Shown one piece after another: positions 1,694 to 27,659 of a stretch of DNA of 33,093 bases. The position numbers and the translations under genes are program-made. Location: positions 1 to 33,093 of the IMG/VR virus record IMGVR_UViG_3300017722_004904; one strand, written 5' to 3'. Within the stretch, counting starts at the first letter, position 1; the number at the start of each line of letters is the position of its first letter. The notes beneath the pieces are model-generated. The model was not told the origin of the DNA. It did no database searches and worked only from the letters and a program-made list of their open reading frames with translations. Source of the DNA: a virus (Duplodnaviria > Caudoviricetes).

Positions 1694-1766
1694 AAACACA
1701 AATGTAATAAATATTTAGTATCAATTGTTTATGTTTTAAATATAAAGTTTTTATACTTTTGAAAAA
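1694..1766. promoter_or_regulatory. Divergent promoter module, copy 1 (73 bp)
   Basis: -7 boxes TACATTTG (minus, 1699-1706) and TACTTTTG (plus, 1754-1761); palindrome TTTATGTT-TTA-AATATAAA at 1728-1746; 66/73 identical to 10139-10211. Confidence 0.8.
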
Positions 1767-1774
1767 TAAACGGA

Positions 1775-1848
1775 GAAACATTAGCTCAGTTGGTAGAGCC
1801 GTTAGCGAAAGCATAACGTGGTCTTGGGTTCGATTCCCAAATGTTTCA
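1775..1848 (+). tRNA. tRNA-like element (pseudo-tRNA) with non-canonical anticodon arm
   Basis: Acceptor GAAACAT/ATGTTTC; D arm GCTC-AGTTGGTA-GAGC; T arm TTGGG-TTCGATT-CCCAA; anticodon arm GTTAGC-GAAA-GCATAAC lacks U33 and folds best as a GNRA tetraloop; no encoded CCA. Confidence 0.75.
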
Positions 1849-2145
1849 CAAAATTGTTCATTGACGTATTACAAGTTTTTGTTTGGACCGGGGTTCGAAA
1901 CCCCGCCTCTCCACAAATCGCTCGCCACGATGTAAGTTTCTTTGTTCTTTAAAAATAAAGTGGTGGAGTCACCGAGTTATCGGTTGACCTAAATTTGAGT
2001 AGAGTATAAACTACGGTTAAGCCAATGCGAATAAAAACATGATTTGGTGGGTAGGCTATGCCTTCAAAAGAAGTTAGCCAAATGGGGAGGAATGGCTTTG
2101 ACAGCAATACACGAGTAGTACAGAGAACTTTTTTATTTTTTAAAC

Positions 2146-2193
2146 GGCAAATTAATTAGCCTTAACAACACTGAGCTTAGAGCTGCAGCGTAG
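2146..2193 (+). other. tmRNA proteolysis-tag reading frame (A)GKLISLNNTELRAAA*
   Basis: TAAAC immediately precedes the GGC resume codon; 15 codons ending GCT GCA GCG TAG; C-terminal Ala-Ala as in ssrA degrons. Confidence 0.85.
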
Positions 2194-2204
2194 TTACGAA
2201 ACTT

Positions 2205-2231
2205 GGGAGAGCGTAAATCTCCCTTTTTTTT
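2205..2231 (+). terminator. Intrinsic terminator of the RNA operon
   Basis: GGGAGA-GCGTAAA-TCTCCC followed by T8. Confidence 0.85.
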
Positions 2232-9399: not shown

Positions 9400-10097
9400 T
9401 AGTTTCTATTTTTTTTATTCTCTTCATTTACATCTTCATTATTTCCCGATATTTGTAAATCTTGTTCTTTTAAGTTAATTCCAAACTTAACAAGTAACCT
9501 AGCCACAATATCATCCTCTTCTGACGGGTGCATATCAATGTCTTGAAAATCCTGAGCATCTGGATTAAACATTTCAACCCCGTTAAAATATGTATAGGTC
9601 CATTTAGGCATTAAAGGTTTGCGTAGGTAATATGCTGTTACATTTGTAGTGATGGTTGCAGGAAGTATTTCAACAGTATTTCCAATTCTAAATCCAATAG
9701 GAAACTTAACACTTGGTTGCGTATGTTTAAATCGTTTCAAATGATTAAATTCTTGACTGTCCTTACAAATACTTACTTCGTTTACTGAGTTGTAAAATAT
9801 TGATTCTAAATAAACTAAGTTGTCTGGAAGGGTAAATTTGTCAGATGTGTACTCCAATACATTTGGCGTTAGAAAATGTTGCATTTTGGCCCGAACTATG
9901 TCGGTTAGGTTCTCAACACCATTACCAATCAAGCCACGGTTTTGTCTATTGATGTATTTTGTAAGTTCAAAAGGGTATTCCTCAAATTTTTCTAGCATTA
10001 CATTGTAAAGAGCTTTATCAAAATCAGCAGGTTTAATGTTTCCACGAACCTCACTGTTTGCAAGCATCCTAACGGTCTGATACACGTTATCAATCAT
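9399..10097 (-). CDS. Head-tail adaptor / tail tubular ring protein (232 aa)
   Basis: MIDNVYQTV...RGNIKPADF, LPDNL and YLRKP..PKW motifs; first gene of the tail operon. Confidence 0.7.
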   Translation of the reverse strand: MIDNVYQTVRMLANSEVRGNIKPADFDKALYNVMLEKFEEYPFELTKYINRQNRGLIGNGVENLTDIVRAKMQHFLTPNVLEYTSDKFTLPDNLVYLESIFYNSVNEVSICKDSQEFNHLKRFKHTQPSVKFPIGFRIGNTVEILPATITTNVTAYYLRKPLMPKWTYTYFNGVEMFNPDAQDFQDIDMHPSEEDDIVARLLVKFGINLKEQDLQISGNNEDVNEENKKNRN

Positions 10098-10138
10098 AAT
10101 ACATTTTATTTATGTTTTTAATAGAAATTACCGATACA

Positions 10139-10211
10139 AAACACAAATATAATAAATATTTAGTATCAATTATTTATATTAAAAACATAAATTTTTTATA
10201 CTTTTGAAAAA
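10139..10211. promoter_or_regulatory. Divergent promoter module, copy 2 (73 bp)
   Basis: TATATTTG (minus, 10144-10151), TACTTTTG (plus, 10199-10206), palindrome TTTATATT-AAA-AACATAAA at 10173-10191. Confidence 0.8.
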
Positions 10212-19632: not shown

Positions 19633-20009
19633 TAATCTTTATTTTTTTGGGCGTACCTTTTGGTTGGGTTTTTTACTGTAGTTACTTTTTCTTCTGGCTC
19701 GGATTCTAGCTTGGCAATAGCTTCAAATAATTCTGGAGCATTCAATTCCATTTCAAGCATGTTGATTTTCTCCATCATTTTGTTAGCGTTATCAAGGGCT
19801 CTATCACGCACATTGATAAAAGCAAACATTTGCTGTTCAGCGGTGACTACTAATGAATCTCCGTTTTCGCCTTCTTTTTTAACCTCTTTAAAATCAGGTA
19901 ATGGAGCCGTTACTGCTGTAAAAATTTGATTTACTAATGTTTGGTATTTATCCACTAATTCAGGAATAGATTTCCTTCTACTCTCTTGTAATTTGCTGTC
20001 TTTACTCAT
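19632..20009 (-). CDS. Putative terminase small subunit (125 aa)
   Basis: Helical protein translationally coupled to TerL; inference from position. Confidence 0.5.
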   Translation of the reverse strand: MSKDSKLQESRRKSIPELVDKYQTLVNQIFTAVTAPLPDFKEVKKEGENGDSLVVTAEQQMFAFINVRDRALDNANKMMEKINMLEMELNAPELFEAIAKLESEPEEKVTTVKNPTKRYAQKNKD

Positions 20010-20587
20010 GCTGCTAAAACATCTTTAGTACGGATCCAATACAAGGTTTTGTTTTTAAAGAAAAATGGTATTCCGCACGTTGGGTTAATAAATATTTCTT
20101 GTCCGTTTTCTACGTCATTCTCTTCTAAAAAAGCATTGCGGTATTTTACGGTAGCCTTTCCTTTTATTGTTTTTTCTTTGTCAGTACCGGTGATTAATCC
20201 TGATGTTTTTTTTGGCTTTTCAGTAATAAATGAAACCATCAAATTATCGCCATAGCCTTTCCATTCAGCAGCATCGTTCTCACGGTACAGCACAATCATA
20301 TCAGGTTCGATTTTATACCACGACTTTTCTTTGCCTACTAAATGAATGCTTTCCTGCACACCTTCCTTGTAGATTTGTCTGTATAAAATGGTAGCGTCAA
20401 AAATCACTTGATACCCTTTTTTTAATATTGTTTTGCCTTCTGCTGGAACATTTACAATTGTTCCAAATCGATTTGCTGCTCTATCTCTTGATATTTTTTT
20501 ATCTACAAATAGTTCAATATCGCCAACTTCAATTGTGTCATTAAAAGCCTTTTCGACTTCTAGTATAAAATGATTTATTCCTTGCAT
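20006..20587 (-). CDS. Tandem GroES-like protein (193 aa)
   Basis: Two GroES-like units: FILEV...GTIVNVP...KKGYQVIF and GDNLMV...KTSGLI...ATVKY...GQEIF...IRTKDVLA. Confidence 0.6.
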   Translation of the reverse strand: MQGINHFILEVEKAFNDTIEVGDIELFVDKKISRDRAANRFGTIVNVPAEGKTILKKGYQVIFDATILYRQIYKEGVQESIHLVGKEKSWYKIEPDMIVLYRENDAAEWKGYGDNLMVSFITEKPKKTSGLITGTDKEKTIKGKATVKYRNAFLEENDVENGQEIFINPTCGIPFFFKNKTLYWIRTKDVLAA

Positions 20588-27395: not shown

Positions 27396-27659
27396 TCATA
27401 ATATCAGTTCTATTTCGGTTTTTTCTTGAAGGAATAAACATTTTTTGCCTTGGTACCCTATCGGTACTCCACAGTGTTCGTAGTGTCGCACCATATCGCC
27501 AATTTTCACATGCTCTACTTTTGGACCTATCATAATTACCTTGCCTTCGCGGGGTTGTTTTACGGCTTCTCCTGGTAAAAATATTCCAAAAGCAGTTTGT
27601 GTTACTGCCTCTGAAATTTCTATGAGTACTTTGCTTCGTATTAAACTTTTGATTTCCAT
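27396..27659 (-). CDS. groES: Co-chaperonin GroES-like protein (87 aa)
   Basis: KVLIE...TAFGIFLP mobile loop, GKVIMIG, VKIGDMV. Confidence 0.85.
   Translation of the reverse strand: MEIKSLIRSKVLIEISEAVTQTAFGIFLPGEAVKQPREGKVIMIGPKVEHVKIGDMVRHYEHCGVPIGYQGKKCLFLQEKTEIELIL

Follow-up and report, generated by a model that had tools for sequence, protein, structure and literature searches.

A tRNA-like element with a predicted GAAA-capped anticodon arm precedes a permuted tmRNA in a Bacteroidota phage

The phage and its small RNA unit

The DNA analysed here (33,093 nucleotides, henceforth the window), a 33-kb piece of a freshwater phage, carries portal, terminase and virion genes. Its proteins matched those of phages phi18:3, phi46:3, phi13:2, Gundel_1, Panino and the Elemo phages, and it is related to phages of Cellulophaga, Tenacibaculum, Maribacter and Flavobacterium. 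Gundel_1 is filed in the Pachyviridae and, by protein matches alone, the window phage appears to be 'Pachyviridae-like'. In the likely Flavobacterium hosts, all three chromosomal tmRNAs checked (L250, L259, L260) were of the one-piece form, and RNase Z scored above the curated cut-off in both of the Flavobacterium genomes searched for it. The window also holds two GroES-like genes (20006-20587 and 27396-27659), both in one small phage.

On the strand opposite to the structural genes lies a compact unit of about 480 nt, in which a predicted promoter is followed by a tRNA-like element, a permuted tmRNA and a terminator-like hairpin (Table 1). A single promoter motif and a single terminator are predicted for the whole unit. 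The neighbouring open reading frame (2251-2577) gave no PHROG or Pfam match.

Table 1. Features of the small RNA unit and of the tRNA-like element within it (window coordinates)
Feature	Position	Strand	Basis and remarks
Predicted Bacteroidota -7 promoter element (TAHHTTTG)	1754..1761	+	Sequence; predicted start near 1766
tRNA-like element	1775..1848	+	Acceptor, D and T arms intact; A73; no encoded CCA; no G3.U70
Acceptor stem	1775-1781/1841-1847	+	7/7 Watson-Crick
D stem	1784-1787/1796-1799	+	4/4 paired
Remodelled anticodon arm	1800..1818	+	5 bp, bulged A1813, 2 bp, GAAA at 1807-1810; from energies and pair probabilities
T stem	1824-1828/1836-1840	+	5/5 paired
6-nt spacer, discriminator to first tmRNA helix	1849..1854	+	Same length in L241, L125 and Panino; predicted cut region
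tmRNA acceptor piece	1855..1913	+	Connector helix, T arm, 3' acceptor strand, discriminator A1913; RF04321 and family alignments
tmRNA intervening segment	1914..2083	+	170 nt
tmRNA coding piece	2084..2204	+	5' acceptor strand, G3 pairs with U70; 3' end approximate
Predicted tag frame	2146-2193	+	GKLISLNNTELRAAA, then stop
Terminator-like hairpin with U tract	2205..2231	+	Closes the small RNA unit; hairpin conserved in relatives

The promoter motif follows the Bacteroidota -7 consensus, with a G at -5 (PMC6847099). The promoter lies only some 10 nt upstream of the tRNA-like element, and the motif is found at the same spot in four relatives (L224, L241, L242, L245), although it is a frequent motif, with 27 occurrences on the plus strand of the window. 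A scan for sigma-70 promoters, which is uninformative for Bacteroidota, returned 5 sites against 5.4 expected. The intergenic stretch that bears the promoter (1663-1766) is repeated at about 10095-10211 (85% alike over 117 nt), as it is in relatives, and is probably a promoter module that the phage has repeated.

The downstream partner was recognised as a permuted tmRNA of family RF04321 (1855-2193, 51.5 bits, gathering threshold 47), in the order acceptor piece, intervening segment, coding piece. Its acceptor stem has the G3.U70 pair and A73, the predicted tag ends in alanine, and the assignment of the tag frame is supported by the tags that ARAGORN reports for relatives. The original prediction had described the tRNA-like element as fused to this tmRNA; the two are indeed adjacent, but they are not directly joined, since the spacer separates the element from the helix that begins at 1855.

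Several other features of the tmRNA were recorded. The first 81 nt of the intervening segment (within 1914-1996) are nearly identical in the related locus L241, though intervening segments as a rule diverge freely, and short stretches matching 1935-1969 were seen in unrelated contigs; a separate structured element may lie here. The first bases of the tmRNA (1855-1865) have 10 nt in common with a motif of the host 16S-23S spacer (L321:726-736), located past tRNA-Ala and ahead of 23S rRNA, in the region of the boxA antitermination signal. Counts do not support a boxA-like reading of the tmRNA 5' end, as the motif was not more frequent in host genomes than its reversed control. Docking of a GAAA loop into an 11-nt receptor in the tmRNA was rejected, the receptor hexamer being absent from 1775-2230.

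A cloverleaf with a sealed anticodon arm

By direct reading of the sequence, the 74-nt element forms a cloverleaf in which every pair of the acceptor, D and T stems is present, and all the bases expected at the tRNA elbow (U8, A14, G15, G18, G19, A21, C48, U54, U55, C56, G57 and A58) are in place, as the original prediction had claimed for the arms. A73 is followed by CAA, and the variable region has 6 nt, against the usual 4-5. The departure from a tRNA is in the anticodon arm. When placed in the canonical register, the arm (17 nt, 1801-1817) shows a G instead of U at position 33, a G31.A39 mismatch and a nominal anticodon AAA. The element thus has the paired stems and conserved elbow of a decoding tRNA, and lacks U33 and the 5-bp stem with a 7-nt loop.

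The predicted fold is a cloverleaf closed at this arm by the GAAA tetraloop (z = -3.4 against 200 shuffles). The tetraloop register was computed at -22.6 kcal/mol and the open canonical one at -17.1, a difference of 5.5 kcal/mol, and the two pairs of the tetraloop stem (1805-1812 and 1806-1811) had probabilities above 0.99. That the arm would fold better with a GAAA cap, as was originally proposed, is hence borne out by the model, which adds two details, namely the bulge and an extension of the stem by the pair C1800-G1818. Taken with the missing U33, the predicted fold makes it likely that the element is a non-decoding tRNA mimic with a GAAA-sealed anticodon loop.

Annotation tools handle such a molecule in different ways. 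ARAGORN labels it tRNA-Phe(AAA), a forced call, while Rfam matches it to RF00005 (46.7 bits, gathering threshold 29) with an alignment that omits the anticodon arm. Mimics that keep the elbow and have no working anticodon are known, among them mascRNA/menRNA, the bacterial YrlA RNAs and the stable tRNA-like RNAs of T4. The element differs from these in that tRNA was its only Rfam match, with none to mascRNA/menRNA, YrlA or the T4/T5 tRNA-like RNAs at E <= 1; nor was there a match to RF02553 (YrlA / Y RNA-like) anywhere in the window at the same threshold.

Taken at face value, the ARAGORN call would describe a working if odd tRNA-Phe, with anticodon AAA or with an enlarged loop that reads frameshifts, serving phage genes rich in UUU. 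Codon use is compatible with this (269 UUU against 51 UUC in 6674 codons of 13 window genes), and A73 suits phenylalanine. We nonetheless consider it very improbable, given the lack of U33, the G31.A39 mismatch and the strongly favoured tetraloop. In addition, UUU is already decoded through wobble by the tRNA-Phe(GAA) of the host, and PheRS requires a GAA anticodon in a normal loop. Charging by another route also appears unlikely: tRNA identity rules permit charging without the anticodon through G3.U70, a long variable arm or G-1, and the element has none of the three.

Copies of the element in other assemblies

A second IMG/VR contig is identical to the window across 1600-2400, and sequencing run X1 contains the identical element at a depth of 84, but the former may share the source sample and the latter is possibly the source itself. 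Run X3, from another study, provided a low-depth contig that spans 1678-1842 and has the same arm; its single difference from the window lies outside the element. No further copy of the exact element was found in IMG/VR, and BLASTN against annotated phages returned only generic tRNA matches and the Panino tmRNA. Among 401 genomes of the genus of G001, the locus was present in G001 only; the other 51 matches were short, and the two of these that were inspected are host one-piece tmRNAs.

Two other runs show the locus in altered form. One contig of run X5 (depth 6, a single contig) carries a copy of the element that matches only 1770-1858, with two differences, one of which, at 1803, breaks a pair of the arm. 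The match ends 10 nt past the element, so that the tmRNA of the window does not lie behind it. Another X5 contig is identical up to 1776 and then runs into a different D arm. In run X4, a 62-kb contig of a close relative (90-95% alike) has 365 other bases in place of 1777-1846 and rejoins the window at 1847, retaining the last two bases of the element and the spacer.

The element is known solely from metagenome assemblies, as would be the case if it had arisen by a sequencing or assembly artefact. Such an origin is exceedingly improbable, considering the depth in X1 (even if that is the source), the same arm in the independent study X3, the two-difference copy in X5 and a distance of at least three edits between the arm and any canonical one. 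Sequencing error, an alternative raised in the original prediction, is for the same reasons very unlikely. It had also been proposed that an ordinary anticodon loop in close relatives would betray recent decay. Here the outcome was divided: ordinary tRNAs do occur at this place in relatives, but they are different genes, and an intact copy of the same gene was not found among them.

What related loci carry in the same slot

The comparison covered 10 different loci with a tmRNA of this family, the duplicates L126, L134, L136, L137 and L138 being excluded. In four of them (the window, L241, L125 and Panino), exactly 6 nt separate an upstream tRNA shape from the first tmRNA helix, and this spacing is the same in all four even though the bodies are unrelated: tRNA-Glu in L125, tRNA-Asp in Panino, and non-canonical elements in the window and L241. 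The last is a syntenic locus of Flavobacterium caseinilyticum with the tmRNA closest to that of the window; its element has a different body, an 18-nt arm without U33 and only 4/7 acceptor pairs, which looks like decay. In five other loci (L124, L130, L131, L132, L133), the tmRNA helix follows 3-10 nt after the end of a bare promoter motif, bearing in mind that L130-L133 are metagenome contigs of unproven phage origin and that L133 consists of the acceptor piece only. The tenth, L135, has neither tRNA shape nor promoter motif before the tmRNA.

Family members without a long U tract have other elements on the downstream flank, i.e. a GAAA-capped mimic (L146), a mimic without an anticodon arm (L130) or a tRNA-Thr (Panino). 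Of all the tRNA shapes that flank tmRNAs of the family, 4/7 are non-canonical. The armless one, just past the permuted tmRNA at L130:897-957(+), measures 61 nt and retains the acceptor, D and T arms of a tRNA.

The slot is also occupied where this tmRNA is missing. A tRNA-Met in L224 and a 110-nt mimic in L245 stand first after the same promoter and before a different, conserved non-coding stretch of about 150 nt that takes the place of the tmRNA and has no Rfam match. Among 22 syntenic loci (twin excluded; all 22 scanned by script and 14 with Rfam), tRNA-like genes were present in only four (L224, L241, L242, L245), and the number of tRNAs near this gene in syntenic relatives ranges from none to 15. 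Elsewhere among viruses, an ordinary tRNA stands directly upstream in 3/42 tmRNAs that look permuted by sequence pattern among the 120 loci listed, of about 1300 estimated. Two of four matches to the spacer pattern (L254, L255) were set aside as chance, having no tmRNA. Short A-rich trailers that start with CAA are common after host and phage tRNAs.

Two further RNA features were noticed in these relatives. A conserved tRNA-like RNA of 108-111 nt is found in related phage or prophage loci (L241:4683-4793(-), L245:4707-4816(-), L125:881-988(-)); it combines an acceptor of the alanine type (G3.U70, A73) and ordinary D and T arms with an anticodon arm enlarged to about 55 nt, and has an apparently shorter relative at L242:4328-4414(-). 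The second is a repeat made up of GACA, a 4-bp stem and a GGAAAGAC loop, present in 2-3 copies per cluster in L358 (G001), L357 (G003) and L242, many of them followed within a few bases by a tRNA or mimic. This repeat has no Rfam match and is absent from the window and from Panino.

Origin from tRNA-Phe

Within two edits, no canonical arm can be reached from the 24-nt middle segment of the element and, at three edits, only one with anticodon GAA. The arm aligns with the tRNA-Phe of the related phage G003, as do the arms of the mimics in L146 and L241, and also with the host tRNA-Phe. Because GAA alone is reachable and the arm aligns with the G003 gene, a phage tRNA-Phe(GAA) is the most likely ancestor of the element, in which case the GAAA tetraloop would consist of the former GAA anticodon together with A37. 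Origin from a tRNA-Met/Ile(CAU) was rejected, as it is unreachable within three edits. With a canonical phage tRNA-Phe(GAA) of RF00005 the element has in common its body, elbow, length and A73, and the slot in which relatives carry tRNA genes; it differs in U33, the 7-nt loop and the variable region, and is predicted to be unable to decode.

Such a descent could mean that the element is simply a decaying relic, a tRNA-Phe that has lost its use and is the last of a shrinking phage tRNA cluster, with a body that appears intact by detection bias. The edit distances and the alignment with tRNA-Phe agree with this account, and so do the fast turnover of the slot seen in X4, the varying number of tRNAs in syntenic relatives, the variant at 1803 that leaves a base unpaired, and the weak acceptor stem of L241. 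The distribution of changes is harder to reconcile with decay: at least three fall in the middle 24 nt, and none breaks a pair or an invariant base in the other 50. The same element also appears in a second genomic context (X5). Weighing these points together with the comparison described below, we judge the relic account possible but doubtful.

GAAA-sealed mimics in other phages

Viral sequences were searched with a pattern of tRNA D and T motifs around C-GAAA-G, using one hexamer of the same composition as control. The pattern gave 84 matches in 38 clusters, against 33 matches in 21 clusters for the control. Full cloverleaves were formed by 17/38 of the C-GAAA-G clusters (that of the window included), none of them with a canonical U33 loop; in 12 clusters at least three contiguous pairs close the tetraloop, and closing stems reach up to 7 perfect pairs. 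Only 3/21 control clusters were cloverleaves, two of which are ordinary tRNAs and one non-canonical. The comparison shows that GAAA-sealed mimics recur in unrelated phages, with the reservation that it has a single control hexamer and that descent from tRNA-Phe could itself favour GAAA. It also speaks against the relic account. We found no report of GNRA-sealed phage tRNA mimics, or of mimics flanking permuted tmRNAs, in a search of mainly open-access literature.

Other patterns came up in the same searches. L139 and 28 similar loci represent a large family of viral elements that failed the cloverleaf test; they show tRNA-like D and T motifs, an additional hairpin upstream and a loop of 8 nt, variable but with GAAAG at its end. 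Weak YrlA-like matches, below gathering, lie beside GAAA-type mimics in two other phages (L166:648-788 and L205:758-830), and a repeated unit led by GGGATGCTG was seen in L127/L166.

When 20 of the loci with GAAA mimics were scanned with Rfam, most of the mimics were in tRNA clusters or alone and one (1/20) was beside a tmRNA. This setting would suit a decoy, i.e. a released 74-nt RNA that binds host defence or stress enzymes reading the tRNA elbow or 3' end, with a sealed loop that avoids both cutting and the ribosome. Standing first after the promoter, such an RNA would presumably be abundant; it is retained although the tmRNA has no need of it (5/10 loci), and its near-identical copy in X5 has no such tmRNA behind it. 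Host anticodon nucleases have moreover been proposed to shape the anticodon loops of phage tRNAs, in that case decoding ones (PMC10264068). Those nucleases, however, read the very loop that is missing here. The acceptor stems of the mimics have nothing in common in sequence, and ordinary tRNAs occupy the same slot. We regard a decoy function as unlikely.

A possible role in RNA processing

The reading that we favour, though we put it at no better than an even chance, is that the element is a Phe-derived, non-decoding t-element, cut out by host RNase P and 3'-trimming enzymes so as to free the tmRNA acceptor piece. A host sigma factor would start a single transcript near 1766, RNase P would cut at 1775, and a second cut, by RNase Z or by an endonuclease with subsequent trimming, would fall within the 6-nt spacer. 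The 5' end of the acceptor piece would thereby fall within a few bases of its start in the promoter-driven relatives, and the same enzymes would excise the intervening segment of the tmRNA. As the parts that RNase P and RNase Z read, the elbow and acceptor stem would then be maintained by selection, with the anticodon arm under no such constraint, while the sealed loop would keep a probably uncharged RNA off the ribosome. What the structural model predicts is a fold of the tRNA type without the function of a tRNA. The changes confined to the 24-nt middle (at least three edits, with all elbow and stem positions intact) fit this proposal, as does the X4 replacement, in which the last two element bases and the spacer are retained.

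Processing of the tmRNA acceptor piece had already been suggested in the original prediction and, with the spacing fixed in 4/4 loci and RNase Z in both host genomes searched, it is still the most likely role, but in a weaker form. Given that the slot is interchangeable, the element is one filler among others and not a dedicated or required tmRNA factor. Nor is the GAAA cap a tmRNA-specific signal, because ordinary tRNA-Glu (L125) and tRNA-Asp (Panino) fill the slot, half of the loci have a bare promoter, and the X5 copy comes without the tmRNA. Since that promoter ends 3-10 nt short of the helix, the 5' end would be almost identical whichever route is taken.

Some observations weigh against the t-element proposal. 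Deleting the element would leave the simpler promoter-tmRNA layout of 5/10 relatives. With its own promoter only about 10 nt upstream, and so many relatives doing without it, punctuation explains why the shape is kept and not why the element is present. The X5 copy, the 4/7 acceptor stem of L241 and the rarity of upstream tRNAs before the other listed permuted tmRNAs (3/42, all ordinary) point the same way, and C at position 74 is known to slow Bacillus RNase Z. Finally, as CAA-led A-rich trailers are common after host and phage tRNAs, the 6-nt spacing may have been inherited with the tmRNA rather than selected.

Comparison with known systems and significance

The closest parallels are the t-elements of Haloferax volcanii, where cleavage by tRNase Z makes the 5' end of 5S rRNA (PMC4326828), and those at the ends of plant mitochondrial mRNAs (PMC1920247). 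The likeness lies in a non-decoding tRNA-like fold placed directly upstream of a stable RNA, whose 5' end a tRNase Z cut would make. Here, in contrast, the element belongs to a bacteriophage and has a full four-arm cloverleaf with a GAAA-sealed arm, 6 nt from the helix of its partner, and the cleavage is predicted. The partner itself resembles known permuted tmRNAs of RF04321 in score, G3.U70, T arm and alanine-ended tag, and differs from them in coming from a Bacteroidota phage whose likely hosts carry the one-piece tmRNA. A survey of 79 phage tmRNAs describes a tRNA inside one intervening segment and, in the sections consulted, mentions no upstream mimic (PMC11915505); other irregular tRNAs have been described (PMC5389517), and nuclease-evading loops have been reported in decoding phage tRNAs (PMC10264068).

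What is new at this locus is a slot of fixed spacing and interchangeable content beside a two-piece tmRNA, which makes the idea of tRNA-shaped punctuation directly testable. The four-part unit of about 480 nt is a self-contained test case whose readout is clear, and for which the natural slot variants (Glu, Asp, two mimics, none) are controls. On a more general level, anticodon-sealed mimics could be nuclease-proof punctuation in the small-RNA operons of Bacteroidota phages, recruiting host RNase P and RNase Z for the release of a two-piece tmRNA and of other RNAs, yet escaping both ribosomes and the defences that cut anticodons. They would then be the phage equivalent of t-elements and mascRNA, derived repeatedly from tRNA-Phe; we offer this as a tentative extension that is rather unlikely.

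The locus also flags a family of permuted tmRNAs in phages of Bacteroidota, whose likely hosts use the one-piece form. Annotation tools call elements of this kind tRNA-Phe(AAA), 'undetermined' or nothing at all, which distorts phage tRNA counts and the codon-compensation arguments built on them. If the processing role is true, phages would mature small RNAs by means of tRNA shape without decoding.
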